From an uncultured bacterium (lineage in GTDB: Bacteria; Patescibacteriota; Patescibacteriia; CAIQCM01), in the NCBI GenBank assembly GCA_963708045.1, contig OY970181.1, positions 707,740 through 771,739 of the forward strand: a DNA stretch of 64,000 bases. The letters are read 5' to 3'. Position numbers and translations under genes: made by a program. Numbering within the stretch: the first letter of the stretch is position 1; every line of letters starts with the position of its first letter. Positions 1,529 through 63,341 of the stretch are shown here, one piece after another. Under the pieces are notes generated by a model. That model worked only from the letters and a program-made list of their open reading frames with translations. It was not told the origin of the DNA and did no database searches.

Positions 1529-1606
1529 ATGTACCACTTCACATGAACCATGTACCACGCACCATCCATTAACGAGTGGTTCATGGTTAATGGTACATGG
1601 TTAATG
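1529..1606. repeat. Intergenic heptamer-unit inverted repeat, family 1 (GTACCAT/ATGGTAC units)
   Basis: gtaccacttcacatgaaccatgtaccacgcaccat ... ggttcatggttaatggtacatggttaatg; left and right arms are reverse complements; 7-nt periodicity. Confidence 0.8.
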
Positions 1607-1620
1607 ATTCATAATTATAT

Positions 1621-2715
1621 ATGAAGAAATTCGCCGTCATCACCGCTCTCTATTATGAGGACAAATTTTTGCCCGCGTATTTTGACGCCTTAAAAAAAGT
1701 TAATTATCCGGCGAATGATTGGATGATAATTGTCGTTGATAATCGCAGTTCGGAAATAACGAAAAAGTGGGTGGACGAAAATGTTTTGCCGTGCGTCGGT
1801 AAAACGCTTCCCGAGTTTCATTTTTTGGAAACGGAACAGAATCTAGGTTTTGCTGGCGGCAATAATCTTTGTACACGCCTGGCAATGGAAAAGGGGTGCG
1901 AGGCGGTTTATTTGTTAAACGAAGACGCATGGCCGGATGCTGATTTTCTAAAACACGCGGGCGAACGGCTGGCCGACCCCTTGGTCGGCGCCGTGCAGTC
2001 GCTTATTGTTCTTGATCCGTGGGAAAGGGGAGCAAATTCTATCGGCAATGAGGTTCATTATTTAGGTTGGAGTTATTGCGGCGGCGCCGGCATGGACAGA
2101 GCGGATGCCGAAGGGCTCTTGCGCGTCAAAAAATTGACCGATCCCGAACTTAATATCCCCAGCGCCTCGGGTGCTGGCGTTGCTTTTAAAACCGAAGCTT
2201 TAAAACAAATCGGACTCTTTGACGAAAATTATCACCTTTATCATGAAGACGTGGATCTTTCCTGTCGCGCCCGGCTTGCCGGATGGAAAATCGTCATTGC
2301 GCCAGAGTCGGTCGTTTATCATACTTACGATTTTGCGCGGAGCACGGAAAAAATTTATTTGATGGAACGGAATCGTTTTCGTTTTATGTTGGAACACTAT
2401 AAAATTCCAACGTTGGTTATTATTTTTCCGGCATTTTTTGTCGCCGAACTTGGTCTCCTTGTTTTGGGCGTTAAAAATAAAACCTTTCGTCGTCGCCTCG
2501 CCGCGTACGGATACATTTTAAATCCAAAAAATTGGCGATCCATAGGAGAAAAAAGAAAACAAGTTCAGACGCTTCGCAAGATTTCCGATCGCGAATACTT
2601 AAAATTTGCGACGGGCGTTGTGCTTAGCGAATACGCGCCTGGATTTTTTGTTCGCGCTGGGAACGTTTGCTTTAGCGCCTATTGGTGGCTGATTAAGAAA
2701 ATAATTACCTGGTAG
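1621..2715 (+). CDS. Glycosyltransferase family 2
   Basis: VVDNRSSE (DxD region), YHEDVDLSCRARLAGWKI motif; C-terminal TM segment. Confidence 0.75.
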   Translation: MKKFAVITALYYEDKFLPAYFDALKKVNYPANDWMIIVVDNRSSEITKKWVDENVLPCVGKTLPEFHFLETEQNLGFAGGNNLCTRLAMEKGCEAVYLLNEDAWPDADFLKHAGERLADPLVGAVQSLIVLDPWERGANSIGNEVHYLGWSYCGGAGMDRADAEGLLRVKKLTDPELNIPSASGAGVAFKTEALKQIGLFDENYHLYHEDVDLSCRARLAGWKIVIAPESVVYHTYDFARSTEKIYLMERNRFRFMLEHYKIPTLVIIFPAFFVAELGLLVLGVKNKTFRRRLAAYGYILNPKNWRSIGEKRKQVQTLRKISDREYLKFATGVVLSEYAPGFFVRAGNVCFSAYWWLIKKIITW

Positions 2716-2718
2716 CCT

Positions 2719-3710
2719 ATGCATTTGCTCGTGACCGGCGGCGCCGGATTTATTGGTTCAAATTTTACGCGCGAATGGCTTAAAAATCATCCTGCGGATC
2801 ATCTTACTGTTCTTGACGCGCTCACTTATGCCGGCAATAAAAAATATTTGCGCGGCGTTGACTATTCGCGTTTGTCTTTTATTCGCGGCAACATAACGAA
2901 TCCCGCGGCCGTGGCTTTTGCGATGAAAGAAGCTGATGCAGTCGTTCATTTTGCCGCCGAATCGCACGTTGACCGTTCTATTGTCGACCCGGCCGCCTTT
3001 TAAAAACCAACGTTTTTGGCACGCACGTTCTTTTGGAAGAAGCGCGCCGCCGCGAAGGACAGATTGTCCGTTTTCACCACGTTTCCACGGACGAAGTTTT
3101 TGGCGCTTTGGAAATTACCGAAGCGCGGCGATTTCACGAACTAACGCCTTATGCGCCAGGTAGTCCTTATGCCGCTTCCAAAGCCGCTTCCGACCACCTC
3201 TGTCGCGCCTACTTTAACACCTACGGCGTTCCCGTGACGATTACGCACTCGTCAAACAATTACGGACCATATCAACACCCAGAAAAACTTATTCCCACGA
3301 TAATTATGTCAGCGATGGACAACCGCTCGGTTCCCGTTTACGGCGACGGTCTCTATGTTCGCGATTGGATCCATGTGATTGACCACTGTCGGGCAATAGA
3401 AGCGGTAATGATGAATGGAAAAGTCGGCGAATCTTATTGCGTTGGCGGGCGAACCGAAAAGCCGAATATAGAAATTGTCCGGACGATTTTGGAAATTTTG
3501 AACCGTCCGCATTCGCTTATCTCGTATACTAAAGATCGCCCTGGCCACGATCGGCGTTATGCCCTTGATCCAACCAAACTGGAGCGCGAACTTGGCTGGC
3601 GGCCGCGCTGGTCGTTTGTGGATGGGCTAAGAGAAACGATTAATTGGTATAAATTTAACCGCAGCCTTTGGAGCGCAATGCCGGAGGAAATAAAATCTGA
3701 CATAAAATGA
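2719..3710 (+). pseudogene. rfbB: dTDP-glucose 4,6-dehydratase (rfbB) interrupted by a -1 nt frameshift near nt 3000 (or sequencing error)
   Basis: ORF 2719-3003 encodes N-terminus (MHLLVTGGAGFIGSNF...ESHVDRSIVDPAAF*). The next frame continues KTNVFGTHVLLEEARR...YAASKAASDHL...(YxxxK catalytic motif) to 3710. Junction gccttttaaaaaccaacg lacks one nucleotide relative to expected ...AAF-I-K-TN.... Confidence 0.7.
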
Positions 3711-5284: not shown

Positions 5285-5287
5285 TTT

Positions 5288-6166
5288 ATGCCGACGGGAA
5301 ACATTAAACACATTGGTTTTATAATGGACGGCAATCGTCGCTGGGCTAAGGGTAATGGTTTGCCGACTTTTGAAGGGCATCGGGTCGGTAATGATTTGGT
5401 TAAAAAAGTCGGGCCTTGGTGTTTGGCTCGCGGGATAAAGTATATTACTTTTTACGCTTTTTCAATTGAAAATTGGAAGCGCACCAAAGACGAAGTTGGA
5501 TATTTAATGGAGCTTTTGATGTCCGACATTACCAAAGAGTTGGATTATTTAACCAAGGACAATATAAGATTAAAAATAATCGGCCGGCGCGCCGACCTTT
5601 CTCCAAAACTGCAAAACGCGATTGCCGAAGCTGAAGAAAAAACCAAAAATTATTCCGCTGGCGTTATACAGCTCGCTGTTTCTTATGGCGGACGCGATGA
5701 GATTGTCCGTGCAGCCGTCAAGGCGGCTCTGGCTCAGGAAATTACCGAAGAGGGAATCGTAAAAAATTTAGACACCGCCGGAATCCCTGACCCTGATCTT
5801 ATTATTCGCACGTCGGGGGAGCAGCGCCTTTCTGGTTTTCTCACTTGGCAGTCAATTTACAGTGAACTTTTATTTTTAAATAAACATTGGCCAGATTTTT
5901 CCGAAGCCGATCTTGATGCGGCGATTGCTTGGTATTCTGAGAGAGATCGAAAGATACGGAAAATAGAAAACGGGGCACGGCGCTGTTGCGTCGTGCCCCG
6001 ATTGGTCGGCTGTGTCTACTTGGTTTTGGTGCCTAGAGCGGTGTGCGCAGTGGTGCCGTTTAAAGCGACTGACATTTGTATCATCGCTCTCTCTTTCATC
6101 ATAAACGGCCACCACCATCGCTTGCTCAACCGGTCAAGAAGTCCTTGGAAGTTCTTCCTGATCTGA
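5288..6166 (+). CDS. uppS: Undecaprenyl-diphosphate synthase (UppS); native C-terminus probably near nt ~5965, ORF reads through ~65 extra codons into foreign high-GC DNA
   Basis: DGNRRWA signature, RLSGFLTWQS...SELLF..WPDF; after ...AWYSERDRKIRK the reading frame continues across a 12-bp-stem hairpin (5973-6001) with no stop until 6166, overlapping a convergent ORF. Confidence 0.8.
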   Translation: MPTGNIKHIGFIMDGNRRWAKGNGLPTFEGHRVGNDLVKKVGPWCLARGIKYITFYAFSIENWKRTKDEVGYLMELLMSDITKELDYLTKDNIRLKIIGRRADLSPKLQNAIAEAEEKTKNYSAGVIQLAVSYGGRDEIVRAAVKAALAQEITEEGIVKNLDTAGIPDPDLIIRTSGEQRLSGFLTWQSIYSELLFLNKHWPDFSEADLDAAIAWYSERDRKIRKIENGARRCCVVPRLVGCVYLVLVPRAVCAVVPFKATDICIIALSFIINGHHHRLLNRSRSPWKFFLI

Positions 6167-6594
6167 CCTAGCTCTGTTTCAAGTTCAGCGCGCGACCTGC
6201 CGCTTTGAGATCCTTCGTAACTTTCGGTCGGGCGTATGGCGCCGGTGCGGATCTTATGCAAGAGTTCTCTCGCATCGCTAACCGTTTTTGCCACGATTTC
6301 GAGTCTATAAGAACTGTTGGAGCCGTCGTCGAAATCGAGCACCCCTTTCGCCGATCGCAGAGCGTAAGTTCCAGTTTCTCGCTCAACTCCAGGGGGCGTT
6401 GTAAAGATTGCGTGAACGGATACCTTATCAATGGCGCTGGTAACCCGTGGGTCAGTCCACGGATCAAGTTCGCTCTCACTATCAACCATGGTGTACCAAC
6501 GCCTGTCGGTGTCGGTTTTGATGTTGAGCCCTGGAATTCCATCGGCGGGTAGTTGTGTTCGGTCAATGTACGCGCGAATGCTTTGGATACTCAT
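6016..6594 (-). CDS. Hypothetical protein (192 aa), in a short region that looks higher in GC by eye
   Basis: Good SD (AGGAGAGAAACATG on minus strand at 6589-6606); non-repetitive globular-looking sequence; no recognisable family. C-terminal ~50 codons overlap uppS read-through. Confidence 0.5.
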   Translation of the reverse strand: MSIQSIRAYIDRTQLPADGIPGLNIKTDTDRRWYTMVDSESELDPWTDPRVTSAIDKVSVHAIFTTPPGVERETGTYALRSAKGVLDFDDGSNSSYRLEIVAKTVSDARELLHKIRTGAIRPTESYEGSQSGRSRAELETELGQIRKNFQGLLDRLSKRWWWPFMMKERAMIQMSVALNGTTAHTALGTKTK

Positions 6595-6773
6595 GTTTCT
6601 CTCCTTGGTTTTCGTGTCGCCTGGATTCCGTCGGGCTTACTGGACCCGTCCGTTCCGTGGGTTGACCGTGTTTGTGCACCGGATTTTTAGGCCGGATCTA
6701 AAAAATAATAGCTTAAATTGGGGTTATTGTCAAGCTCCTATGCCTCTATAGACAAATGATGTATGTTATAAAA

Positions 6774-6846
6774 GTAACAACTTTTAACTGTTAACTTTTA
6801 GGTTTTAGCAAGCCACTAACAGTTAAAAGTTAATAGTTAACAGTTG
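6774..6846. repeat. Intergenic heptamer-unit inverted repeat, family 4 (AACTGTT/AACTTTT ... AAAAGTT units)
   Basis: taacaacttttaactgttaacttttagg...ctaacagttaaaagttaatagttaacagttg immediately upstream of rarA start. Confidence 0.8.
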
Positions 6847-6848
6847 AT

Positions 6849-9305: not shown

Positions 9306-11113
9306 TGATTAAGAATTTTTCACGAAAAAAAAATTCTTTAGGCACGGTCGTTCGCGACCGTATTTTGGCTGGTCTCGCGGTTTTTATCGGGTTAGTTTGT
9401 CTCGTCCGCCTTTTTCAACTACAAGTTTTGGATGCTTCGTTTTATAAAGCTTTGGCCAGCGGCCAGCGCAATGTTTTTTCAAAATTAATCCCCGAACGCG
9501 GCGACATTTTGGTGCGCGATGCTGGTGGAAAAGAATATGCCGTCGCCGCCAATCGCGATATGTGGATGGTCTATGCTGATAATCGCAAAATAACCGACCC
9601 AGCCGCAACGGCCAAGGCGCTCGCGCCACTCCTTGTCGCGCCGGTTTTGGAAAAAGATAAAACACCAGAAGTAATTGTTGAAGAAAAAAAAGCAGCGCTG
9701 GCTACAAAAGAAGAAGAATTAAAAAAACGCTTGTCCGTTTCAACTAATGCGTATAATCCCTTGGCGCACGAATTGGATGACGTCGCTTGTACTGCTATTA
9801 AGTCGCTCGGTATCGCGGGAATTGAATTTACGCCGGAAAAAATTCGTTATTATCCCGATCAAAAATTTGGCGGCCAAGTGCTTGGTTTTTTTGGTTATGA
9901 AGGAAATGAAAAAGTCGGACGTTATGGGATAGAGGGCTATTGGGAAAAAGAGCTGGCTGGTACGCAAGGATTTTTAAAAAGCGAAAGCGATCCGCATGGC
10001 CGGACGATTACCGTTGCCAATACTTCTTTTCGCGAAAAGCAGGACGGCGCTGACCTTGTCCTCACGATTAATCGGACGCTTCAAGACGCTAGTTGTGGCT
10101 GGCTTGATGATTGGGTGAAACAACATGGCGCGAGCTCGGGTTCGCTCGTGATGCTGGATCCAAAAACCGGCGCGATAATGGCGATGTGTGGCTCGCCAAA
10201 TTTTGATCCAAATAATTATGAAAAAGTCGGGTCATCCGGCGATTACAACAATGCCGCCATTTGGAACGCTTATGAACCCGGATCGGTAATGAAAGCCATA
10301 ACCATGTCGGCGGCGCTGGATCAGGGCAAAGTAACCCCGACTACGACCTATACTGATTTTGGCGAACTTACGATTAACGGAAAGGTAATTAAAAATTCCG
10401 AACCAAATCCCTTTGGTGTTCAAACGATGATTCAGGTTTTGGATAATTCGCTCAACACTGGCGCGATTTTTGCGATGCGCCAAATTGGCGGCACGATGTT
10501 AAAAAATTATTTGTTCGCTTTTGGTTTTGGAAAAAAATTAGGCATAGAAACCGATACCGAATCGCCAGGAAATTTAGCCAGCCTTGACCAGAATCGTGAA
10601 ATTTTTGCCGCAACAGCCTCGTTTGGACAGGGGATTACGACCACTGTTCTTCAACTGGCTTCGGCTTACGGAGTAATGGCTAATGGTGGAAAGTTGATGA
10701 AGCCATATGTTGTTGATGAAGTTCGCAATTACGACGGGAAAATTGTAAAAACCGCGCCAAAATTAATTGGGCAAGCGATTTCCGAACACGCCGCCAATTT
10801 GATTACCGGTATGCTTGTTTCGGTGGTAAAAAATGGTCACGGCAAGCGTGCCGGCGTTCCTGGGTATCTTGTTGCTGGAAAAACCGGCACAGCGCAAATT
10901 CCGCGTATGGATGGCCTTGGTTATGAAGATAAGGATACAATCGGAACGTTTGCCGGCTATGCCCCAGTTTCCGACCCAAAATTTGTTTTGGTGGTGCGCG
11001 TTGACAGGCCGCAAGATGTTCAGTTTGCTGAAAGCTCGGCCGCGCCGCTTTTTGGCAAGATTGCCGCTTATACCTTGCAATACTTAGGCATTCCACCGGA
11101 TGATGTTAAGTGA
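9305..11113 (+). CDS. Penicillin-binding protein (FtsI/PBP2-type transpeptidase)
   Basis: N-terminal TM anchor, dimerisation domain, SxxK (GSVMK), SxN (LNTG) and KTGTA motifs. Confidence 0.85.
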   Translation: MIKNFSRKKNSLGTVVRDRILAGLAVFIGLVCLVRLFQLQVLDASFYKALASGQRNVFSKLIPERGDILVRDAGGKEYAVAANRDMWMVYADNRKITDPAATAKALAPLLVAPVLEKDKTPEVIVEEKKAALATKEEELKKRLSVSTNAYNPLAHELDDVACTAIKSLGIAGIEFTPEKIRYYPDQKFGGQVLGFFGYEGNEKVGRYGIEGYWEKELAGTQGFLKSESDPHGRTITVANTSFREKQDGADLVLTINRTLQDASCGWLDDWVKQHGASSGSLVMLDPKTGAIMAMCGSPNFDPNNYEKVGSSGDYNNAAIWNAYEPGSVMKAITMSAALDQGKVTPTTTYTDFGELTINGKVIKNSEPNPFGVQTMIQVLDNSLNTGAIFAMRQIGGTMLKNYLFAFGFGKKLGIETDTESPGNLASLDQNREIFAATASFGQGITTTVLQLASAYGVMANGGKLMKPYVVDEVRNYDGKIVKTAPKLIGQAISEHAANLITGMLVSVVKNGHGKRAGVPGYLVAGKTGTAQIPRMDGLGYEDKDTIGTFAGYAPVSDPKFVLVVRVDRPQDVQFAESSAAPLFGKIAAYTLQYLGIPPDDVK

Positions 11114-11200
11114 GGTGTTAGGTTTTAGGTATCAGGTGTTAGGTTTTAACATACGACCTTTGACCTGTAACCTTGAACCTTGCACCTTGAACCTAATAAC
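11114..11200. repeat. Intergenic heptamer-unit inverted repeat, family 3 (AGGTGTT/AGGTTTT ... AACCTTG units)
   Basis: aggtgttaggttttaggtatcaggtgttaggtttta...acctttgacctgtaaccttgaaccttgcaccttgaacctaa. Confidence 0.8.
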
Positions 11201-11203: not shown

Positions 11204-12493
11204 ATGAAAAACCTTATTGAAAAAATATTGTCCGCGCTTGCAAGCGCGATCATAAAAAAGTATAAGCCGATGGTGGTCGCGGTTACTGGTTCGGCTGGTA
11301 AGACCTCGGCCAGAGAAGCGATTTACGCGGCGGTAAATACCGAGTTTGACGCGCGCGCTTCGCTAAAAAATTATAATAACGACCTTGGCTTGCCGCTTTC
11401 AATCATCAACGCTAAGTCGGTCGGAAAAAATATTTTTAGCTGGCTTAAAATTATTGCACGCGGCGTTTCGTTTATTGTTTTTTTGCGGCGTTTTCCCGGC
11501 GTTTTAATTTTAGAAATGGCGGCTGATCATCCGGGCGACCTCGCACGGCTCGTAAAAATTGCACCGCCGAATGTTTCCGTTATTACCTCAGTCGGTTCGG
11601 CGCATATGGAATTTTTCGGTTCCGAAAGCGCGATTGCCGAAGAAAAAGCAACCCTTGTTCATGCGCTGACCGTTGATGGCGTTGCTGTTTTGAATGCTGA
11701 CGATTCGCGGGTTAATGGTATGCGCTCGACTTGCAAAGGAAAAATTATAACTTTTGGAATAGACAATGTTGCCGACGTTCGTGCGACAAAAATTGAATAT
11801 CTTCGCGACACGCAATCGCTTGCGGTAACCGGACTTTGTGTTGAAGCCGCAATTAAAAATCAAAAAGTAAATTTTATTCTTCATGGTGCGATCGGAAAAA
11901 ATCATGTCTTGGCCGCGCTGGCTGGTTTGGCCGCTGCTTATGCGTTAAAAATAAAACCAGAAACCGCCGCGCTAAATTTGGAAAAAATAAAACTCGCCCC
12001 TGGTCGGTCGCATTTAATTCCGGGCATAAAAGAAACAATGATTATTGACGACTCATACAACGCTTCGCCGGCAACGGTTTTAAGTGCCTTAGTGGCGTTA
12101 AAAGATTATCCGGTCGTCGGAAACGGCCGACGCATTGCGCTTATCGGCGATATGCTTGAGCTTGGTGGCTATACCGAAACCGCGCATAAAAATGTTGGCG
12201 AAACGGCGGCAAGACTTGGTATTGATTTTTTGTACGGTGTTGGCGAACGAATGCACGACGCTTGCACCGCGGCGCGCGCCGCGGGAATGGGGGAGGAACA
12301 AATTATTCATATGGAAAATGCCGGCTCGGCCGCGCGCTTTCTTCAGGAACGTTTGCATCCAAACGACGTGATTTTAATTAAGGGCTCGCAAGGAATGCGC
12401 ACTGAACGCGCCGTCCGCGAACTAATGCTTGAACCGGAAAAAGCCGAAGAACTTCTTTGTCGGCAGGGGAAGGAGTGGGTGGATGGCACGTAG
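11204..12493 (+). CDS. murF: UDP-N-acetylmuramoyl-tripeptide--D-alanyl-D-alanine ligase (MurF)
   Basis: VVAVTGSAGKTS P-loop, Mur ligase middle/C-terminal motifs (DDSYNASP). Start moved to ATG 11204; upstream TTG lies inside the repeat. Confidence 0.85.
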   Translation: MKNLIEKILSALASAIIKKYKPMVVAVTGSAGKTSAREAIYAAVNTEFDARASLKNYNNDLGLPLSIINAKSVGKNIFSWLKIIARGVSFIVFLRRFPGVLILEMAADHPGDLARLVKIAPPNVSVITSVGSAHMEFFGSESAIAEEKATLVHALTVDGVAVLNADDSRVNGMRSTCKGKIITFGIDNVADVRATKIEYLRDTQSLAVTGLCVEAAIKNQKVNFILHGAIGKNHVLAALAGLAAAYALKIKPETAALNLEKIKLAPGRSHLIPGIKETMIIDDSYNASPATVLSALVALKDYPVVGNGRRIALIGDMLELGGYTETAHKNVGETAARLGIDFLYGVGERMHDACTAARAAGMGEEQIIHMENAGSAARFLQERLHPNDVILIKGSQGMRTERAVRELMLEPEKAEELLCRQGKEWVDGT

Positions 12494-12576
12494 CACGTGG
12501 CATGTGGCATGTGGCATGTGGCGTGTGGCACGTAGCACGTAGCGCGTGGCTTGTAGTACGTGATACGTAGTAGGTG
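12491..12576. repeat. Tandem heptamer array, family 2 (GCACGTG/GCATGTG/GCACGTA, ~11 units), overlapping murF stop
   Basis: tagcacgtggcatgtggcatgtggcgtgtggcacgtagcacgtagcgcgtggcttgtagtacgtgatacgtagtaggtgg; 7-nt periodicity; second copy at 19046-19092. Confidence 0.8.
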
Positions 12577-12604
12577 GTTACTGTGGAATTAATGAAAAAA
12601 TCTT

Positions 12605-12646
12605 TCGCATCACATTAAATCGCGATCGCGATTTAATGTGATGCGA
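12605..12646. repeat. 42-bp perfect palindrome centred on CGATCG
   Basis: tcgcatcacattaaatcgcgatcgcgatttaatgtgatgcga (perfect inverted symmetry). Confidence 0.85.
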
Positions 12647-12663
12647 GTAAATATTTGAATAAA

Positions 12664-12691
12664 CGAAAACCCTTGAGACACTCAAGGGTTT
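12664..12691. terminator. Bidirectional intrinsic terminator hairpin
   Basis: aaaacccttgagacactcaagggtttt: 10-bp GC-containing stem flanked by A-run and T-run. Confidence 0.6.
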
Positions 12692-12718
12692 TGCGGTTAA
12701 GAGGAAGTGACGGTTTGT

Positions 12719-13315
12719 TTATTTGTCCGGTAGAACGCCGGGGTGGGTGAAGCTGAAAAAGGCTTGGCCTGTTCTTTGGCTTATTTCCCCCCTGAGCGGT
12801 CCGACCGATATGCCGGGATAGACCGTGAAAATCTCCAGACTCCAACCACCCCCAATGCGCATGAAGTCGCAGGAAAAAGTCACGGCATAGGTGAGCATTG
12901 CTAAGTGATGCGTGCCTTGTTTGACCCTAAGCCCAGTACAGCTTCTGTTAAGGCCAAAGGGTTCAAGATCGTCAACTTCAAAGAGCGTGAGCGGCGCGGT
13001 TGAGGACCAGCCAACCTGACGAGAGTGGGTGACGGAAAAATACCTTTGCCGTTCACGGGAGCCGATGATGGCGTTGGTGATACTCGGCAATTCAGCGCAA
13101 AATCGCTGAACGAAATCTCCGTCGGCAAAAACTTCGTTAAAGTTGCGCCAAAGCAAGAAGTTGCCGGCAAGCGGTTCGCCACCTGGTCGGAAACAGGTGT
13201 TTCTAAGGCAAAGCTCAACAGTATCTCGACAGTAGACGGTTGTGTCGGCAAACCCAGGAATACGAAGGAACCGTGAGAACGCTACGTGTGATGGCATCGT
13301 GTGAATCCTTTGCAC
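12719..13315 (-). CDS. Hypothetical protein (198 aa)
   Basis: Long ORF in GC-richer DNA, divergent from 13541 gene; no recognisable domain. Confidence 0.45.
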   Translation of the reverse strand: MQRIHTMPSHVAFSRFLRIPGFADTTVYCRDTVELCLRNTCFRPGGEPLAGNFLLWRNFNEVFADGDFVQRFCAELPSITNAIIGSRERQRYFSVTHSRQVGWSSTAPLTLFEVDDLEPFGLNRSCTGLRVKQGTHHLAMLTYAVTFSCDFMRIGGGWSLEIFTVYPGISVGPLRGEISQRTGQAFFSFTHPGVLPDK

Positions 13316-13927: not shown

Positions 13928-13978
13928 TCACCCACCACAAAAGCATTCACTGCTTCCGTGGTGGGTGTTTTTGTTTTT
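13928..13978 (+). terminator. Intrinsic terminator (island terminator family)
   Basis: cacccaccacaaaagcattcactgcttccgtggtgggtgtttttgtttttt: 10-bp stem + T-run. Confidence 0.7.
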
Positions 13979-14020
13979 TAATTCTTCCAACTTTTTCCGA
14001 TCGGAAAAAGTTGGAAGAAT
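13979..14020. repeat. 42-bp perfect palindrome centred on CGATCG (copy 1 of 2 near-identical)
   Basis: aattcttccaactttttccgatcggaaaaagttggaagaatt; near-identical copy at 15581-15622. Confidence 0.85.
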
Positions 14021-14140
14021 TTAAAAATAGAAAGTCAAAGGAATTAAGTCTAATTCTTGACATAACCTCTCTGAAGTATCGGCAGGGAAATACGTGGTTC
14101 TTTGAGTTTAGAATGTGGGAAGTGATATAATAACGTCGTT

Positions 14141-15580: not shown

Positions 15581-15622
15581 AATTCTTCCGACTTTTTCCG
15601 ATCGGAAAAAGTCGGAAGAATT
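15581..15622. repeat. 42-bp perfect palindrome centred on CGATCG (copy 2)
   Basis: aattcttccgactttttccgatcggaaaaagtcggaagaatt. Confidence 0.85.
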
Positions 15623-18768: not shown

Positions 18769-18964
18769 CCGAATGACTTAAGACAAACGACCTCGCCTGG
18801 TACGCCGGGCGGGGTTTTTCTTTATTTATAAAATACAAAAGACCACCCCGATTAAAGGGTGATCTTTTTTGCTGAGCCGACCTCGGTCCAAGTAGGCAAG
18901 CTAAGCTTGTCTTGTGGTAGCGAAGCTGAGCTTCGCCGTCATTCTTGAAACCGAGCTCTGCTCG

Positions 18965-19041: not shown

Positions 19042-19045
19042 GTAT

Positions 19046-19092
19046 TGGCACGTGGCACGTAGCACGTGGCACGTAGTTTGTAGTCTGTGTTG
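19046..19092. repeat. Tandem heptamer array, family 2 (second copy)
   Basis: gcacgtggcacgtagcacgtggcacgtagtttgtagtctgtg directly abutting tRNA-Glu 5' end. Confidence 0.8.
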
Positions 19093-20884: not shown

Positions 20885-20923
20885 TTGACGAACTAATTAG
20901 CACTCTATACAATAGAGTGCTAA
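20885..20923 (+). promoter_or_regulatory. hrcA promoter (TTGACG-17-TACAAT) with perfect CIRCE operator TTAGCACTC-N9-GAGTGCTAA
   Basis: ttgacgaactaaTTAGCACTCtatacaataGAGTGCTAAaat; CIRCE consensus 20897-20923. Confidence 0.9.
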
Positions 20924-20932: not shown

Positions 20933-21592
20933 ATGAAGAAACTAGAGGTCAGAAAGGAAACAATTCTGGATTCTTTGGTTAGAGAATACGTAAAAACCGC
21001 CGAGCCGGTAAGTTCGCTGTACCTTTCGGAAAAAGCCGAGTTGGCGGTTTCTTCGGCAACGGTTAGAAATGAATTGGCCGATTTGGAAAACGAGGGGTTT
21101 CTTGTTCAGCCGCATACGTCCGCCGGCCGTATTCCAACCGAAAATGCTTACCGGTATTTTGTTGAATATTTGTCGCGGCCGCAAAAAAACGACAGCGTTT
21201 TTGTTGCTCGGCTGCAATCGTTTTTTAAAGAACGCGACGACGCCAAAGCCGCGGCCAAGATGCTGGCGGCCGAAACTAAGGAATGCGTTTTTGTTCTGTT
21301 TGAACCGAATGATACCTATTATACCGGACTGACTAATCTTTTTTCGCAGCCGGAATTTGGCGAGCGCGAGATTGCCTTAAATATTTCCGGCGCCCTTGAT
21401 CAGTTGGACGAAGCTGTGTCCAAATTAAAACACGAAGGCGGCGTTAAAACGCTTATTGGTCGCGAGTGTCCGCTTGATCGGCGCTCTTCAATTGTTTATG
21501 TGGGCGCTGGAAAGCGGATCGTCGGTGTTGTTGGGTTGGTGCGAATGGATTACGAAAAAATTATTGGGCTCTTAAATTCACTCAATAAATAA
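20933..21592 (+). CDS. hrcA: Heat-inducible transcription repressor HrcA (short form)
   Basis: AEPVSSLYLSEK...VSSATVRNELADLENEGFLVQPHTSAGRIPTENAYRYFV matches HrcA N-terminal wHTH; preceded by CIRCE. Confidence 0.85.
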   Translation: MKKLEVRKETILDSLVREYVKTAEPVSSLYLSEKAELAVSSATVRNELADLENEGFLVQPHTSAGRIPTENAYRYFVEYLSRPQKNDSVFVARLQSFFKERDDAKAAAKMLAAETKECVFVLFEPNDTYYTGLTNLFSQPEFGEREIALNISGALDQLDEAVSKLKHEGGVKTLIGRECPLDRRSSIVYVGAGKRIVGVVGLVRMDYEKIIGLLNSLNK

Positions 21593-21657
21593 CTGTTAAC
21601 TGTTAACTTTTAACTATTAGGTTGCTAAAAGTTAAAAGCTAAAAGTTAAAAGTTAAT
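21591..21657. repeat. Intergenic heptamer-unit inverted repeat, family 4
   Basis: aactgttaactgttaacttttaactattaggttgctaaaagttaaaagctaaaagttaaaagttaat. Confidence 0.8.
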
Positions 21658-22133: not shown

Positions 22134-22238
22134 GGCGTCATTCCGAGCCTGTCTGGTCGCTCTGTCCAAGGCGAGGAATCACGAAGCTTGCTAGAGACTT
22201 TGAGTTCCCTCATCGCTTCGGCTCTTCGGGATGACGCC
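22134..22238 (+). repeat. 105-nt structured repeat element (copy 1) with ~14-bp terminal inverted repeats
   Basis: ggcgtcattccgagcctgtctggtcgctctgtccaaggcgaggaatcacgaagcttgctagagactttgagttccctcatcgcttcggctcttcgggatgacgcc; ~88% identical by eye to the reverse complement of 35827-35931. Confidence 0.8.
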
Positions 22239-22290
22239 AAAAACGGATTAGGTATTAGATATTAGAAATTAGATATTAATAATAAAATAT

Positions 22291-25621: not shown

Positions 25622-25712
25622 TTAAGAGGTTTCAGGTTCAAGGTTCAAGGTTTTAGGTGATTAACGTTACGACGTGCTACCTAACACCTAACACCTAAAA
25701 CCTTGAACCTAA
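25622..25712. repeat. Intergenic heptamer-unit inverted repeat, family 3 (second copy)
   Basis: ggtttcaggttcaaggttcaaggttttaggtg...cacctaacacctaacacctaaaaccttgaacctaaac. Confidence 0.8.
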
Positions 25713-25715
25713 ACA

Positions 25716-29234: not shown

Positions 29235-29294
29235 AAAAATATTATACCACAGAGTGGGAATGCAGGCTTTTGATTTTTTTGTTATACTATAACA

Positions 29295-39720: not shown

Positions 39721-39789
39721 AACATGAACCATGTACCATGAACCATCCGTTTGGTACATGGTACATGGTTAATGGTTCATGTAAAAAAT
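39721..39789. repeat. Intergenic heptamer-unit inverted repeat, family 1
   Basis: aaacatgaaccatgtaccatgaaccatccgtttggtacatggtacatggttaatggttcatg. Confidence 0.8.
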
Positions 39790-41571: not shown

Positions 41572-41718
41572 TGCCTTGTCGGGGTCGCGAGAAAGGGCTA
41601 TGATAATGCCTTATGAAATTTAAACGACGAGTTTTATTTAAAATAGTTTGGTTGGTGATTGCTTTCCTTACTATTTTATCAATGGTCGCGTTCTCAATTG
41701 GAATAGGATAATAGTAAT

Positions 41719-43440
41719 ATGACAAAGCAGTGGCTCGTCGCCGAACCTTATCCAGCTGATTTTGGGAAAAATTTTTCCCATCTTTCTCCGGTTACGCTCC
41801 AATTGCTTTGGAATCGGGGCATGCGTGAAGAGAAAGAGATTGACGAATTTTTAGTCGCCGATTATGGGCGGCATATTTACGACCCGTTTTTATTCCGCGA
41901 TATGAAGACGGCAGTCGCGCGGATTTTTTCGGCGATTGATAAAAAAGAAAATATTTGCGTTTTTGGCGATTTTGACGCCGATGGCGTGGACGCGTCAATA
42001 ATTTTATGCACGACGCTCAGACTTTATGGCGTTAATCCGCGCGTTTATATTCCGCATCGCGAAACCGAAGGCTATGGGTTAAATGCCGGAGCGGTGGAAT
42101 ATCTTGCGAAAGAGGGCGACAATTTGATTATCACTTGCGATTGCGGAATTTCTAATGCCGCTGAAATTGCGATTGCCGTGGAAAAAGGGATGGACGTGAT
42201 CGTGACCGACCATCACGCCGAGCCAAAAGTTTTGCCTGACAAAGCGATTGCCTTAATTCATCCAAAACTCGCGCACGAAAATTATCCTTGCAAAAATCTT
42301 TCCGGCGGCGCCGTTGCTTTTAAAGTGGCGCAGGCGCTGCTTCGGACGCGTTCACCGCTTACGCCGGCGCAAACAGAAAATTTCATCAAGCGCCTAACCG
42401 AACTCGCGGCGATTTCGCTTGTTGCTGACATGGTGCCCTTGCTTGGTGAAGCGCGGACAATTACCAAGTACGGACTGATTGTTTTAAACAAAACAACGCG
42501 GCTTGGATTAAAAAAATTATTTGAAGCCGCCGGTGTCGTGCCTGGGCGGATTGACTCGCGCACAATCGGTTTTCAGATCGCGCCACGGATTAATGCCGCC
42601 GGACGGATGGATCACGCTAATGCCGCCTTTGCACTCTTGGACGCGAGCGACGACGAATCAGCAGTGCGCTTCGCAATTAATTTGAACGCGGCAAACGACG
42701 AGCGGCGCAAAGCAACGGAAACGCTTGTTGCTGAAGCGCGGGAAGAAATAATTAAAACCAACCAAGAAGAAGCGCCAGTCATCATTGTTTATAATGAGCG
42801 TTGGCCAATCGGACTGCTCGGTCTTGCTGCCGGTGAAATCGTTAAGGAATATAATCGACCGGCCTTTGTTTTTTCAAAAAAAACCAACGACGAAATGGTC
42901 GGCTCGGCGCGTTCTATTCCGGCGGTAAATGTAATTTTGGCAATGCAAAAAATGCCCGACGCCTTTTTGCGTTTTGGCGGACACCCGGGCGCGGCTGGAA
43001 TGAGTATTGTCCCAAACAAGTTTGATGAATTTAAAGAACGTTTTGCGGCCATTGTAAAAACCGAACTCAATGGAAAAGATTTAACGCCGTCAATAAATAT
43101 AGATGCTGAGCTTACGATTGCCGATATAAACTGGGATATTTTTGGTGATATTGAAAGATTCGCACCTTATGGAATGGGAAACAGGAAGCCATGTTTTTTG
43201 GCTCGTAATCTAACGGTTGTTTCGGCCGAGGCGATTGGCAAAGACGGCAAGCATCTGCGACTTTTGGTTTGTGCCGCGGGCGGCGAACGACGGAAGTGTA
43301 TTGCTTTTAGTTTTGGCGACCTTTCGGCCGAATTAAAAAGTGGGGATAAAGTTGATGTCGTTTTTGAATTGGAAAATAATGAATGGAACGGTCGCAACGA
43401 ATTGCAATTGAATATAACGGATTTGACGATTGTTAAATGA
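41719..43440 (+). CDS. recJ: Single-stranded-DNA-specific exonuclease RecJ
   Basis: DHH motifs (VFGDFDADGV, ITDHH), DHHA1 domain, C-terminal OB fold. Confidence 0.9.
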   Translation: MTKQWLVAEPYPADFGKNFSHLSPVTLQLLWNRGMREEKEIDEFLVADYGRHIYDPFLFRDMKTAVARIFSAIDKKENICVFGDFDADGVDASIILCTTLRLYGVNPRVYIPHRETEGYGLNAGAVEYLAKEGDNLIITCDCGISNAAEIAIAVEKGMDVIVTDHHAEPKVLPDKAIALIHPKLAHENYPCKNLSGGAVAFKVAQALLRTRSPLTPAQTENFIKRLTELAAISLVADMVPLLGEARTITKYGLIVLNKTTRLGLKKLFEAAGVVPGRIDSRTIGFQIAPRINAAGRMDHANAAFALLDASDDESAVRFAINLNAANDERRKATETLVAEAREEIIKTNQEEAPVIIVYNERWPIGLLGLAAGEIVKEYNRPAFVFSKKTNDEMVGSARSIPAVNVILAMQKMPDAFLRFGGHPGAAGMSIVPNKFDEFKERFAAIVKTELNGKDLTPSINIDAELTIADINWDIFGDIERFAPYGMGNRKPCFLARNLTVVSAEAIGKDGKHLRLLVCAAGGERRKCIAFSFGDLSAELKSGDKVDVVFELENNEWNGRNELQLNITDLTIVK

Positions 43441-43520
43441 AACATGGAATCATGTACCACACACCATGAACCATGTACCATACGCAAAATGGTTTATGGT
43501 GCGTGGTATATGGTCCATTT
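43441..43520. repeat. Intergenic heptamer-unit inverted repeat, family 1
   Basis: aaacatggaatcatgtaccacacaccatgaaccatgtaccatacgcaaaatggtttatggtgcgtggtatatggtccat. Confidence 0.8.
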
Positions 43521-43528
43521 AATAAAAT

Positions 43529-43942: not shown

Positions 43943-43993
43943 TCTATTTTGTGTATCGCTAGACTTGGTTTTGGACAAACGTTTAGATATTTT

Positions 43994-51122: not shown

Positions 51123-51250
51123 CGTATGTACCATGAACCACACACCATGAACCATATGTAATTTGGTATGCGGTACATGTTTCATGTTTTATGGTACATG
51201 GTACATGGTGCGTGGTACATGGGATATGGTGTGTGGTATAATGTGTGTAC
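51123..51250. repeat. Intergenic heptamer-unit inverted repeat, family 1 (largest copy, ~128 nt)
   Basis: gtaccatgaaccacacaccatgaaccat ... atggtacatggtacatggtgcgtggtacatgggatatggtgtgtggtat; right arm ~7 tandem (A/G)TGGT(A/G)C units. Confidence 0.85.
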
Positions 51251-51833: not shown

Positions 51834-51880
51834 TCTCTCAAACTCTGTAAAAACAAAGAACGTCGTGGTATAATTAATTT

Positions 51881-59746: not shown

Positions 59747-59761
59747 TTAAATTTTAACTAT

Positions 59762-60087: not shown

Positions 60088-60909
60088 TTGTTTATGAGTG
60101 AAAATTCCTCGTCAGAATCAGCAAAGAAGAAAAGCGTGTTTGATGCCTTTACCTCCAAAACTACTTTTTGGTCGGGTTTTGTTATTGGGATAATGGCTTT
60201 TTGCACGATTGTTTTTATTTTAATGGTCGGTACGAAAACCGATTGGAAGTCTTTTGGTTTTAGTAATTTGCAAAATGGTTGGAAAACAAATCCGCCAGTT
60301 GCGGCAAACGGCAATGACAATGCCAACACGAATGCGCCGGCGAAGGCTGCCGATAAACTCCCTGCGATTACGGGCGCCGACCATGTTCGCGGCGATCTTA
60401 ATAAAGCTAAAGTCGTGATGGTTGAATATTCTGATTTTGAATGCCCATACTGCAAGCGTTTTGATACAACCATTCAGCAGGTCTATAAGGATTACGGGGC
60501 AGACATTGCCTGGGTTTATCGTCATTTCCCACTCACAAGCATTCACGCTAATGCGACTAAAGAAGCCGAAGCGACCGAATGCGCGGCCGAGCTTGGTGGC
60601 AATGATGCCTTTTGGAAATATGCCGACGCGCTTTATGCGCGGACAGCTTCCGGTGGCACGGGTTTTGCACTTACCAAACTTGGACCGCTTGCAAAAGAAC
60701 TTGGTCTTGACCAGAAGAAGTTTCAATCTTGCCTAGATTCCGGCAAATATACCGCTAAGGTTCAAGCCGATGAACAAGGTGGAGAAACGGCTGGCGTAAC
60801 CGGCACTCCGGCGACCTTTGTCATAAATCGCAATGGCGACTCTGAATTGATTGTTGGCGCCGAATCGGTTGCCAACGTAAAGAAAGTAATTGACGCGCTT
60901 ATTAAATAG
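60088..60909 (+). CDS. DsbA-family thiol:disulfide oxidoreductase (membrane-anchored)
   Basis: N-terminal TM, thioredoxin-fold CPYC active site (EYSDFECPYCKRF). Confidence 0.8.
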   Translation: MFMSENSSSESAKKKSVFDAFTSKTTFWSGFVIGIMAFCTIVFILMVGTKTDWKSFGFSNLQNGWKTNPPVAANGNDNANTNAPAKAADKLPAITGADHVRGDLNKAKVVMVEYSDFECPYCKRFDTTIQQVYKDYGADIAWVYRHFPLTSIHANATKEAEATECAAELGGNDAFWKYADALYARTASGGTGFALTKLGPLAKELGLDQKKFQSCLDSGKYTAKVQADEQGGETAGVTGTPATFVINRNGDSELIVGAESVANVKKVIDALIK

Positions 60910-60978
60910 GGTTTAGGGTATAGCGTGTAGCGTTTAGTATTTAGAGGGGCGATCCGGTTTATCGGATCGCCCTTTCTG
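60910..60978. repeat. Tandem heptamer array, family 5 (GGGTTTA/GGGTATA/GCGTGTA...) followed by terminator hairpin
   Basis: gggtttagggtatagcgtgtagcgtttagtatttag then gggcgatccggtttatcggatcgccc + T-rich. Confidence 0.7.
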
Positions 60979-61067
60979 GACTAAAAGTTAAAAATAAGGT
61001 AAAAATAGTTAATCCCGTAAGGGGGTAGTTTTTTAAAAATTAATAGAAGATAGCTTAGTTTTCAAAG

Positions 61068-61300
61068 CGGAAGCGTGGCCGATCGAGCAAAGCGAGATCC
61101 CGCCGAAGGCGATGGGTGGCCGATGTGTGTAAAACGGAAGCGTGGCCGAGTGGCCGATGGCGCACGCTTGGAAAGCGTGTAAACCGCAAGGTTTCAGAGG
61201 TTCAAATCCTCTCGCTTCCGTTTTGTACATATGGCGCCCCGATGGACATCGGGGTAAACCGCAAGGTTTCAGAGGTTCAAATCCTCTCGCTTCCGCTTTG
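61068..61300 (+). repeat. tRNA-Ser-derived partial duplications flanking the intact tRNA (5' fragment 61068-61130 with internal insertion; exact 42-nt 3'-half copy 61259-61300)
   Basis: 3' duplicate gtaaaccgcaaggtttcagaggttcaaatcctctcgcttccg is identical to 61179-61220; upstream fragment ggaagcgtggccga...ggccgatg matches tRNA 5' end. Confidence 0.75.
61136..61220 (+). tRNA. tRNA-Ser (anticodon GGA)
   Basis: GGAAGCGTGGCCGAGTGGCCGATGGCGCACGCTTGGAAAGCGTGTAAACCGCAAGGTTTCAGAGGTTCAAATCCTCTCGCTTCCG: 7-bp acceptor, long variable arm, anticodon loop CTTGGAAAG. Confidence 0.8.
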
Positions 61301-61320
61301 AAAATTATCAACCACCATTT

Positions 61321-62265: not shown

Positions 62266-62268
62266 ATT

Positions 62269-62856
62269 ATGTCGCGCCTTGACGAATTAAAGAAAAAAAT
62301 TGACGAGCTTTACCTGTCCAAAAATAAAAATCGCGCGGACTGGGCGGATTGGTTGTATAAAAATCATATTTTTCTTGTTGCCGAAGAAGCGGGGCGTTTA
62401 GCTGATCGCTATGACGCGGACAAGGATTTAACGATTGCCGCGGCAATGCTTCACGATGTTGCCGATGCGGTAATGAAGCGAGAAGATACTGGTCACGAAG
62501 AAATGAGCGCCAAAATTGCTATAGAATATTTGTCGGCTTCTGGGTTTTCCCCAGCTGAAATTGGCATTATTGTAAATGACGCGATGAAATTGCATGGTTG
62601 CGCTGGCGGGGAGTTTCCACTTTCTTTTGAAGGGAAAATAATGGCGACCGCCGACGCTGTCGTGCACCTCACTACCAATTTTTACGAACACTGTATTGAA
62701 GTTTTAAAAAATGAAGAGCCGGTGCCAGAAATTAGGAAATGGGCGCTAAAAAAATTAGAACGCGATTTTTACAACAAGATCCAGCTTGAAGCGATTCGGG
62801 AAGAAGTAAAAAATGATTATGAAAAATTAAAAGAATTTTTATCGGGTGAATTTTAA
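62269..62856 (+). CDS. HD-domain phosphohydrolase
   Basis: AAMLHDVAD (HD motif), helical; 4 nt after upstream gene. Confidence 0.6.
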   Translation: MSRLDELKKKIDELYLSKNKNRADWADWLYKNHIFLVAEEAGRLADRYDADKDLTIAAAMLHDVADAVMKREDTGHEEMSAKIAIEYLSASGFSPAEIGIIVNDAMKLHGCAGGEFPLSFEGKIMATADAVVHLTTNFYEHCIEVLKNEEPVPEIRKWALKKLERDFYNKIQLEAIREEVKNDYEKLKEFLSGEF

Positions 62857-62858
62857 AT

Positions 62859-63218
62859 ATGAAAATTATTATTCAAAATCTTAAAGACAATTCGCGCACG
62901 CTGATCCGCCACGCGGGCTATGGCGAGCATTATGATAACCGAACTCGGGAAGTAAGTTATCATCGCCGACTTGGGCAAACTGTTTTTCCCAATTTCCACG
63001 TTTACCTAAAAGATATGGCGAATGGCGTTGAAGTGTCTTTGCATTTGGACCAAAAACAGCCAAGCTATGGCGCAGGCCATATGCACTCAGGCGATTATGA
63101 CGGACCGCTTATAGAACGCGAGCTTGAACGTATTAAAACGTCATTTGAAAACGCCGCGGCGCCGGAAGTTGACGAACCTGAGGAAAAGAAAGGATTTTTT
63201 TCAAAATTGTTTGGATAA
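62859..63218 (+). CDS. Hypothetical protein (119 aa)
   Basis: ORF in operon-like arrangement with two upstream genes. Confidence 0.4.
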   Translation: MKIIIQNLKDNSRTLIRHAGYGEHYDNRTREVSYHRRLGQTVFPNFHVYLKDMANGVEVSLHLDQKQPSYGAGHMHSGDYDGPLIERELERIKTSFENAAAPEVDEPEEKKGFFSKLFG

Positions 63219-63305
63219 TTATATGTCGGAATTTGACGCTTTCAACAAAAGCCAGCAAGATAAGGCATGATATGATTGCGTCACAAAGTCGCTAAAGCAT
63301 CACCT

Positions 63306-63341
63306 GTCTAAAAGTTAATAGTTAACAGTTAAAAGTTAAAC
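63306..63341. repeat. Intergenic heptamer-unit repeat, family 4 (third copy)
   Basis: ctaaaagttaatagttaacagttaaaagttaaacg just upstream of dnaG. Confidence 0.75.

Follow-up and report, generated by a model that had tools for sequence, protein, structure and literature searches.

Heptamer arrays in the intergenic spacers

We analyzed a stretch of 64,000 nt (hereafter the window) of contig OY970181.1 (positions 707,740 to 771,739, assembly GCA_963708045.1), which belongs to an uncultured Patescibacteria bacterium of the Candidate Phyla Radiation (CPR) with a small genome (1.19 Mb). The spacers between its genes contain arrays of tandem 7-nt units (heptamers), most of them arranged as two inverted arms that can pair into a hairpin. 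These palindromes built from heptamer arrays are clade-wide intergenic elements in which six positions of each unit are constrained and one is free, which are kept at orthologous spacers, and which change by whole units. The same architecture is found in stems that enclose genes of the PF05635 family in three phyla (CPR, cyanobacteria, and Bacteroidota). The analysis covers these ~64 kb of one genome and a few dozen related loci (designated below by L and a number), and gene boundaries derive from our own map of open reading frames (ORFs), according to which 92.4% of the window is coding.

A total of 14 heptamer arrays were identified in the window, namely nine inverted-arm hairpins and five tandem-only arrays. 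Of the 4,847 intergenic bases they make up 1,000 (21%), and 14 of the 31 spacers of at least 40 nt contain one. Almost all of the array sequence is intergenic (1,000 of 1,036 bases), and overlap with genes is confined to stop codons. The units are of the types ATGNACC, AACTNTT, AGGTNTT, GCACGTR, and TAGNNNN, and at least six families coexist, mostly in inverted arrangement. Autocorrelation with a threshold of at least 16 matches in 21 positions returned 17 segments (773 nt) at lag 7 and 12 at lag 14, its harmonic, as opposed to 0-2 segments at each of the other lags from 3 to 13 and at lag 15. Under a stricter threshold (23 of 28), eight segments were retained at lag 7, one at lag 14, and none at the remaining lags. 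Leaving the lag-14 harmonic aside, period 7 is the sole enriched short period in the window. The pattern (TAG N4)x4 was found four times against 0.00 expected and (TRA N4)x4 14 times against 0.19. With at least three head-to-tail 7-nt units, above chance, the arrays are heptameric long simple sequence repeats (LSSRs).

A first-pass annotation of this DNA had reported a 7-nt periodicity at all of its loci, on which Tandem Repeats Finder and autocorrelation agree. Its description of inverted arms, of distinct sequence families, and of long imperfect hairpins was likewise borne out at nine loci (beginning at 1529, 6774, 11109, 21590, 25623, 34379, 39714, 43441, and 51123). All the arrays in its list are real, two had been overlooked (22242-22283 and 34379-34464), and two that it had assigned to families 4 and 5 (63307-63343 and 60905-60945) are single arms and not hairpins. 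It had also placed the arrays between the stop and start codons of same-strand neighbors; the arrays do fill their spacers, but the hairpin at 6774 lies in a divergent one. The gene names that we checked were correct (hrcA, grpE, RecJ, RNase H, T2SSF, pilin, MurJ, DnaJ, and Era).

Family 1 includes three hairpins, located between two glycosyltransferase genes (1529-1606; ATGNACC x5 / GGTNCAT x4; folding energy -29.1 kcal/mol, z -3.64 relative to dinucleotide shuffles), between murJ and lepA (39714-39783; z -6.62), and between recJ and rnhA (43441-43523; z -7.64). A variant hairpin of this family (34379-34464; ATGRACN x4 / NGTYCAT x4; z -3.67 on the sense strand) separates a pilin-like gene from era, both on the minus strand, and an unbalanced element with ~4 units in the left and ~11 in the right arm precedes the pilin gene (51123-51250; z -1.64). 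Family 4 forms hairpins in the divergent spacer upstream of a rarA-like gene (6774-6847; AACTNTT / AANAGTT; z -5.80), beside a promoter on the minus strand (6733-6705), and in the spacer between hrcA and grpE, which it fills (21590-21656; TAACTNT x4 / TAAAAGY x4; z -4.85). The same family is present as a single arm upstream of dnaG (63307-63343; TAAAAGT-type x5; z 0.52). The family 3 hairpins lie between a penicillin-binding protein (PBP) gene and murF (11109-11198; AGGTNTT x5 / AACCTNN x6; z -4.98) and after dnaJ (25623-25713; AGGTTNA x5 / ACCTNAN x5; z -5.87). Family 2 consists of tandem arrays only, one of ~12 GCACGTR/GCATGTG units in the convergent spacer after murF (12482-12576; z -0.68) and one that begins 2 nt from the 5' end of a minus-strand tRNA-Glu (19043-19092; z -0.59). 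The remaining tandem arrays are (TAGNNAT)x5 between grpE and hsp20 (22242-22283; z -0.31) and the single arm of family 5, (TAGNNNN)x6, after a DsbA-like gene (60905-60945; z near 0), with a canonical terminator hairpin directly 3' of it (60946-60978).

Hairpin architecture and the free seventh position

The nine hairpins share one build: the left arm has 4-6 units, a loop of 4-25 nt follows, and the right arm consists of the reverse-complement units. In eight of them the fold is much stronger than in dinucleotide shuffles (z -3.6 to -7.6, with none of 200 shuffles as good), and the copy upstream of the pilin gene folds weakly (z -1.6). Their predicted stems are 5-6-bp helices split by a 1x1 mismatch at each seventh position. 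Across 18 hairpins from the window and close relatives, Watson-Crick pairs were counted in 373 of the 423 cells (88%) at six heptamer phases, and in 19 of 62 cells (31%) at the remaining one, where shuffling gave 16.9 +/- 3.4. Since pairing at the seventh position is no higher than in the shuffled controls, this position is free, selected neither for pairing nor for mismatch; selection in favor of mismatches was considered and dismissed because pairing there is at chance level.

The arms of any one hairpin share the same flavor of unit, while flavors vary among loci and genomes (ATGNACC, ATGAACN, CATGAAR). Deviant units also tend to face each other, as in ACACACC opposite GGTGYGT at 43441 and 51123. 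Comparison of the window hairpins and arrays with Rfam returned no family; only tRNAs scored above threshold, and the sub-threshold matches were spurious and miRNA-like. Outside the arrays, the window contains the hexamer core words no more and no less often than expected, and at such background frequency a role as uptake sequences or in restriction avoidance was discarded.

Position relative to genes, promoters, and terminators

Eleven arrays stop 1-15 nt short of a start codon or of the 5' end of a tRNA, and 2-15 nt separate a hairpin from the next start codon. The gap is 2 nt before the rarA-like gene and grpE, 3 nt before the gene that follows dnaJ, 4 nt before era, and 6 nt before rnhA; the single arm upstream of dnaG ends 1 nt before the start codon (63345) and the tandem array upstream of hsp20 8 nt before it. 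At the other end, the stop codon of the upstream gene is often supplied by the first unit. This is the case for hrcA (TAA, 21590), murJ (TGA, 39718-39720, inside the first ATGAAAC unit), recJ (TGA, 43438-43440, in an ATGAAAC unit), murF (TAG, 12491-12493), and the DsbA-like gene (TAG, 60907), and the stop codon of the PBP gene (TGA, 11111-11113) abuts the first unit. In each of the six families of the window the unit carries a stop codon, which would place stops in all three frames of an array; this property is only suggestive because 45% of random tandem heptamers of spacer composition have one as well. In connection with the hairpin upstream of era, a link between rnc and era was considered and rejected, as the genes upstream of era are pilin-like and do not encode RNase III.

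Just upstream of hrcA lies a TTGACG-17-TACAAT promoter that is overlapped by a canonical CIRCE (controlling inverted repeat of chaperone expression) operator at 20885-20923, TTAGCACTC-N9-GAGTGCTAA. This promoter marks the start of the heat-shock operon, and two arrays are located inside that operon. Because it lies within the operon driven by the CIRCE promoter, the hrcA-grpE hairpin must, judging from the sequence, be transcribed as an intercistronic element. The gap from a hairpin to the ATG that follows it is too short to hold a promoter. A Shine-Dalgarno (SD)-like motif precedes only ~10 of the 65 window genes, and several genes have a TGnTATAAT or TATACT box that ends 6-7 nt before the ATG (e.g., 29235-29260 on the minus strand, 29270-29294, and 51855-51880), a placement that suggests leaderless transcripts. 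The right arms of the hairpins were themselves evaluated as leaderless promoters and set aside, since a plausible -10 box at a suitable distance is present in only a few; family 1 units resemble TGGTATAAT, but not generally.

The hairpins had been proposed to act as terminators or insulators between genes. They are stable structures at gene ends, and convergent gene ends are found at the arrays at 12482, 19043, and 60905, which would suit such a role. However, their stems are A+T-rich and without a T run, as opposed to the G+C-rich stem followed by a T run of an intrinsic terminator. Canonical sites of the latter kind are present at other positions of the window (18789-18816, 12605-12646, and 60946-60978), the last of them being the family 5 array's own terminator, and a consensus scan of the window found none at the arrays except for a mini-stem in one loop. 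Moreover, the next start codon follows within 2-15 nt and the hrcA-grpE copy sits inside an operon. We therefore consider a terminator or insulator function very unlikely.

Other structured elements were observed next to the arrays. Just downstream of the family 2 array, between the convergent murF and the gene at 12719-13315 (minus strand), a 74-nt palindrome and a second G+C-rich hairpin (12589-12692) look like bidirectional terminators. The grpE-hsp20 spacer contains, upstream of its tandem array, a G+C-rich element of ~105 nt (22134-22240) closed by GGCGTCATTCCGAG / CTTCGGGATGACGCC, which has no match in Rfam and could be a structured RNA. The promoter beside the 6774 hairpin is near-consensus (TTGACA-17-TATTAT) and is followed by a G+C-rich leader of ~100 nt with a strong SD (6595-6733, minus strand). 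Downstream of it lies an unassigned 192-aa ORF (6016-6594) that overlaps the end of the plus-strand gene at 5288-6166.

Conservation of the arrays among relatives

In a species-level genome set, the RecJ protein encoded in the window matched only Patescibacteria/CPR genomes, at 39-49% identity; closer relatives were found in the protein database at 86%, 74%, and 60-65%. The unit families of the window recur at the orthologous spacers murJ-lepA, recJ-rnhA, and pilC-pilin of relatives whose RecJ is 62-86% identical, including one relative with a G+C content of 57%, as opposed to 45% in the window. Orthologous hairpins were identified between murJ and lepA in L013, L028, and L029 and between recJ and rnhA in L027, L013, L028, L030, and L035, and the pilC-pilin spacer of L013 carries family 1 units. 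In more distant CPR genomes (Uhrbacteria, Magasanikbacteria, and others) the heptamer hairpins are built from other units.

The flavor of family 1 differs among these relatives, being ATGNACC in the window and L013, ATGAACN in L027, L028, and L030, and CATGAAR in L035 and at the murJ-lepA spacer of L013. The four family 1 loci of the window have their flavor and some rare variants of the unit in common, whereas L027, a closer relative, has a different flavor at the orthologous locus, which implies exchange or reseeding among loci within a genome. Another unit, ATTAGAN/TAGNNAT, forms a hairpin between rnhA and the next gene in L013 and L027, is absent at that spacer in L028, and is present in tandem between grpE and hsp20 in the window. 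At the window's own spacer after rnhA, inspection of the aligned junctions revealed a weak candidate, TAATCTA ... TTTAGATA (43943-43993), that is probably a one-unit remnant of the ATTAGAN hairpin.

Heptamer-like matches inside lepA of L003 are coding sequence and were taken as false positives. An AGGTTTC-type heptamer array was seen apparently within a called tRNA U5-methyltransferase ORF in L028 (2343-2387) and L029 (55-93). Directly upstream of recJ, the window encodes a hydrophobic small ORF of 33 aa (41614-41715) that was also called in L028 (9887-9988).

Length variation and the array upstream of the pilin gene

Arrays that differ in length between strains could act as switches of phase variation or as tuners of expression through 7-nt changes in copy number, especially upstream of the pilin gene, as the first-pass annotation had suggested. 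The array at this gene is the longest and the most unbalanced of the window, differences in unit number do exist between relatives, and 7-bp repeats are found upstream of the hmw adhesin genes of Haemophilus influenzae (PMC12721329, PMC8262952). The two cases are alike in that a heptamer array precedes the gene of a surface structure, and RNase III is involved in the hmw system. Unlike the arrays of the window, which are degenerate, inverted, and stable where they can be compared, the repeats of hmw1/hmw2 are perfect, have one orientation, and vary in copy number by isolate.

The position of the pilin array also speaks against a switch. Its last unit is an extended -10 box, TGGTATAAT (51234-51242), ~100 nt before the pilin ATG (51345), which is preceded by a GGGAGG SD sequence. 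With its other units all upstream of this box, the array is neither between promoter elements nor in the 5' untranslated region. Furthermore, the units of the arrays are degenerate (69-91% matches), and most arrays flank housekeeping genes.

The comparison of lengths across strains was carried out as far as available contigs allowed. The pilC-pilin spacer of the window and that of an independent Logan contig are each 222 nt long, and the recJ-rnhA spacers of the two are equal in length as well. Contigs of the same species from different samples have identical arrays, but they are clonal (0-1 differences in 2.6 kb) and hence a weak test of length. The groups L030-34 and L035-37 are clonal, which leaves a Magasanikbacteria locus with 10 haplotypes as the sole informative population; there, a single unit indel was observed at 0.3-1.5% divergence. 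Around recJ-rnhA, L028 and L029 are 99.97% identical and their arrays do not differ, whereas around murJ-lepA they are 90% identical and the arrays differ by one 7-nt unit plus 1 nt. The unit turnover is slow, unlike that of a contingency locus, although this is a weak test given that most contigs are clonal. On these grounds, phase variation or tuning through copy number appears highly improbable. In one haplotype of the Magasanikbacteria locus, which carries a four-helix-bundle gene (L041, ~1413), a G+C-rich hairpin of 50 nt is inserted in the spacer that the other nine lack.

Heptamer arms enclose genes of four-helix-bundle proteins

The recJ-rnhA hairpin of L002 has a loop of ~360 nt (L002 5596-6022) that encodes a four-helix-bundle protein (PF05635 23S_rRNA_IVP, PF22296 bAvd). 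Further CPR loci (L038-47, L048-51, L052-55, and L056-59) carry a four-helix-bundle gene between heptamer or heptamer-like arms. Such cassettes are often inserted within operons, for instance between cas6 and cas4 or between PrgI and TraC, and in the predicted folds of two of them the heptamer stem closes the ORF. In L053, an operon of conjugation type has two copies in neighboring spacers (1160-1610 and 2250-2700). Over ~450 bp, arms included, the two are 100% identical, and their flanks are unrelated, which means that the cassette was recently copied from spacer to spacer.

A tblastn search of the CPR protein against 72,556 plasmids returned 34 records, nearly all from Nostocales or other cyanobacteria, plus Riemerella. 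In the plasmid records examined (L060-L072) the four-helix-bundle gene is again framed by heptamer arrays, with the arms (GGGAACA)n/(TGTTCCC)n in two Nostoc strains, (TAGGGTG)n/(CACCCTA)n in Calothrix, (ACAGGTG)n/(CTGTCAC)n in Anabaena 90, and (AGGTTCA)n/(GAACCTT)n in the Riemerella plasmid. Over 19 loci, a lag-7 array was detected on 25 of 38 flanks of four-helix-bundle genes and on 4 of 38 control flanks (Fisher p = 1e-6), the controls being the flanks of non-adjacent neighboring genes, few in number and from the same plasmids. A flanking inverted-repeat score of at least 12 was reached at 12 of the 19 loci and at none of the 19 controls, and the maximum among 54 window genes was 10. Stems that enclose a PF05635 ORF in the manner of ribosomal RNA (rRNA) intervening sequences (IVS) are thus found in related loci, while the window copies have no ORF and loops of 4-25 nt. 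In L048 (2290-2803), inverted arms of ~7-nt units (TACGAAN / ATTCGTA) frame a small ORF of another family, PDDEXK_3 (PF13366).

Other features of the window

Three features unrelated to the heptamer arrays were recorded. A tRNA-Ser (61135-61221) is surrounded by partial copies of its own sequence (61060-61300). The sequence GGAAGCGTGGCCGA occurs at 61069 and 61136, and a 42-nt 3' segment of the tRNA (61179-61221) is found again at 61254-61296; these copies could be the scar of an insertion or duplication. The region of pilin-like genes contains a perfect 42-nt palindrome, AATTCTTCCGACTTTTTCCGA followed by TCGGAAAAAGTCGGAAGAATT (15581-15622), and a related one of 66 nt (13968-14033), which represent a second, non-heptamer repeat family. 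Finally, the match of the ORF at 2719-3003 to NAD-dependent epimerases is limited to their N-terminal third, and another ORF comes next (3033-3710), so this region (2719-3710) may be a split or frameshifted gene.

Relation to known repeat systems

Heptamer repeats in intergenic DNA have been on record since 1990, and their origin and function are unexplained. They are said to have been reported in that year by Mazel as the short tandemly repeated repetitive (STRR) sequences of cyanobacteria. In heterocystous cyanobacteria the STRR units are CCCCAGT, TTGGTCA, and CAACAGT. STRR sequences, like other heptameric LSSRs, resemble the arrays of the window in being intergenic tandems of 7-nt units with several families per genome. 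On the other hand, the window arrays are mostly inverted-arm hairpins with one fixed degenerate position, they occur in a CPR host, and their unit sequences are different, with no match to STRR1-3.

Direct repeats of TAACTGA have been described in marine Beggiatoaceae, cyanobacteria, and Bacteroidetes, where they end a few nucleotides before start codons that lack a ribosome-binding site (PMC4679880). These heptamers also contain a stop codon, are found even beside essential genes, and are patchily distributed across phyla, and the unit TAACTGT of family 4 is one base off. However, 169 direct sets were reported against a single indirect one and related heptamers were rare, whereas at least six families, mostly inverted, coexist in the window. 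The GGGAATC / GGGGAYT repeats of Xanthomonas and Nostoc (PMC4692102) are intergenic, include some inverted stem-loop pairs, and vary in length and sequence at the same spacers between related species. In contrast to the A+T-rich units of the window, where G-tracts are limited to part of family 5, they are G-rich and form quadruplexes.

The closest parallel in terms of cargo is the IVS of 23S and 16S rRNA with a PF05635 ORF, the stems of which are cut by RNase III; PF05635 ORFs are also known from rRNA insertions of CPR bacteria (PMC11270868). Both in these and in our related loci a long inverted-repeat stem encloses a PF05635 ORF, and the predicted folds agree. Unlike the IVS, the elements of the window are located between protein-coding or tRNA genes, the window contains no rRNA gene, and its copies have no ORF; arms built from heptamers were not found described for IVS in the literature searched. 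That literature, incompletely covered, likewise yielded no account of CPR heptamer hairpins or of PF05635 genes framed by heptamers.

Cleavage by RNase III is also a feature of the Correia (NEMIS) elements. Together with repetitive extragenic palindromic (REP) sequences, bacterial interspersed mosaic elements (BIMEs), and REP-derived hairpins (REPINs; PMC3116915), Correia elements share with the window hairpins the character of dispersed, intergenic, imperfect palindromes in families common to related species. REP/BIME/REPIN and Correia elements are co-transcribed with flanking genes and have known effects on mRNA processing and stability. They differ in that the window arms are tandem heptamers of variable copy number and no fixed palindrome of 20-40 nt emerges when copies of one family are aligned. 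In addition, REP sequences come with their REP-associated tyrosine transposase (RAYT), and neither a RAYT, another transposase, nor a target duplication was seen (~30 of ~70 window ORFs scanned).

Origin and possible role of the heptamer hairpins

On the basis of these analogies, we tentatively favor, as a possibility that falls somewhat short of probable, a joint reading in which the arrays of the window are cargo-less members of a stem-loop family that resembles both IVS and REP sequences or transposable elements of the miniature inverted-repeat type (MITEs), spreads by slippage and recombination between arrays, and acts at the RNA level in the way of IVS stems. One of the suggestions of the first-pass annotation, REP-like elements, comes close to this. 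Arms would be lengthened or shortened by 7-nt slippage with the loop absorbing any imbalance between them, and families would spread or be homogenized through recombination between arrays at different spacers. The elements would be transcribed within operons and would fold into A+U-rich stems of 25-35 bp with a 1x1 mismatch at every seventh position. Such stems could serve as double-stranded RNA punctuation, most likely as sites of RNase III-type processing or of transcript stability, like the stems of rRNA intervening sequences. Cleavage of the stem would uncouple the cistrons and give the downstream gene a very short leader, an outcome that would suit this genome because most of its genes lack an SD and several promoters look leaderless.

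Several observations weigh against this joint reading. Five of the 14 arrays (12482, 19043, 22242, 60905, and 63307) are single arms that cannot form a hairpin, with fold z near 0. No four-helix-bundle gene was detected in the window or in the RecJ loci except L002, and family 1, the commonest of the window, was never found with cargo at the loci examined. With regard to mobility, the arrays were held at the same spacers over deep divergence, unlike recently mobile elements; no target-site duplication could be recognized at filled versus empty junctions, and no transposase was found among the scanned ORFs. As for likeness to MITEs, inverted arms are present and the L053 cassette with its cargo is 100% identical at two spacers, but the window copies are not near-identical. 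Finally, mismatches are strand-symmetric. Over 24 hairpins, the sense strand has 29 G.U, 31 A.C, and 88 transversion-type mismatches, and the minimum-free-energy folds of 16 hairpins have 40 G.U pairs in sense and 43 in antisense. Strand-specific selection on the RNA was discarded on the basis of this symmetry, which is not predicted by selection on one RNA strand and which a constraint at the level of DNA or of the motif fits at least as well.

The lack of strand bias in G.U versus A.C mismatches would also be expected if the arrays were a mutational by-product, that is, selfish or neutral DNA generated by polymerase slippage with a 7-nt bias, the arms of which are kept complementary by template switching (quasipalindrome correction). 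Heptamers are in excess in many bacteria, in which they are the most over-represented long simple repeat and slippage has been put forward as their cause (Mrazek 2007, cited in PMC4679880 and PMC4692102). The existence of single-arm arrays and the changes in unit number between relatives would fit such an origin too. Nevertheless, six positions stay complementary while the seventh is fully randomized, and this argues for selection or a sequence-specific process acting on the core. Families and positions are also kept at RecJ identities as low as 62%, and a fifth of the spacer DNA is taken up by arrays in a genome that is 92% coding. We regard a purely mutational origin as possible, if unlikely.

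Mismatch symmetry would equally fit the binding of a protein to duplex DNA, with the arrays as operator-like sites that provide one heptad per protein subunit. The precedent is the ribbon-helix-helix (RHH) protein omega/ParB of plasmid pSM19035 (PMC9499535, PMC2441792), which binds contiguous 7-bp units in direct and inverted orientation; at least four contiguous heptads are required at parS (PMC9499535), and the arms of the window have 4-6. Six fixed and one free position, the use of the same unit in direct and inverted arrangements, and the conservation of unit sequence across relatives and possibly phyla would be in line with such sites. The arrays stop shortly before start codons, in the place expected for the promoters of leaderless genes, and the four-helix-bundle genes lie inside their own arrays. 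The binder could be the four-helix-bundle protein. In pSM19035, however, the orientations are intermixed without a spacer, the sites are plasmid promoters, and the RHH binder is known, while such binding in the window is putative. The strict order of forward arm, spacer, and reverse arm, the matched unit numbers, and the variable loop point to pairing rather than to protein spacing, and although flavors drift, the two arms of a hairpin always co-vary. Scanning of ten small or unassigned window ORFs yielded no RHH candidate, and outside the arrays the window shows no enrichment of the unit words. In addition, most regions upstream of genes next to hairpins lack a plausible -10 box, and most arrays are intra-operonic. 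An operator-like function thus seems quite unlikely to us.

A broader proposal would place the CPR hairpins, the STRR-type arrays known from cyanobacteria, and the heptamers of Bacteroidota and Beggiatoaceae in one cross-phylum stem-loop family. Its occasional cargo, the 23S-rRNA-IVS/Avd-like four-helix-bundle protein, would recognize or handle the heptad arms, the elements would move between spacers and, through conjugative plasmids, between phyla, and the short hairpins would be derivatives without cargo. The AGGTTCA/GAACCTT unit of the family 3 hairpin at 25623 recurs exactly in the arms that flank the four-helix-bundle gene of the Riemerella plasmid, the unit type of family 5 matches the left cassette arms in the CPR locus L053 and in Calothrix, and a minor family 4 unit matches Pseudanabaena. 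Three exact unit matches across phyla, compared with 0.4-0.6 expected by a rough count, are only suggestive and weigh little in favor of the joint reading as well; we treat them as a lead and not as a result. As a whole, the broader proposal appears unlikely at present.

PF05635 is a widespread and uncharacterized family of four-helix-bundle proteins, and its placement inside heptamer arms in three phyla joins two puzzles; the phyla of the plasmid records, cyanobacteria and Bacteroidota, are already known for their heptamer repeats. The evidence points to the heptamer hairpins as a shared element family rather than an on/off switch. Their high density in a streamlined genome, the constraint on six positions with a free seventh, and their long-term retention argue for function or active maintenance of these slowly changing repeats. 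If the hairpins are indeed processing sites, they would bear on how genes inside operons are expressed in CPR genomes, in which SD sequences are lacking and leaderless transcripts are prone to occur.

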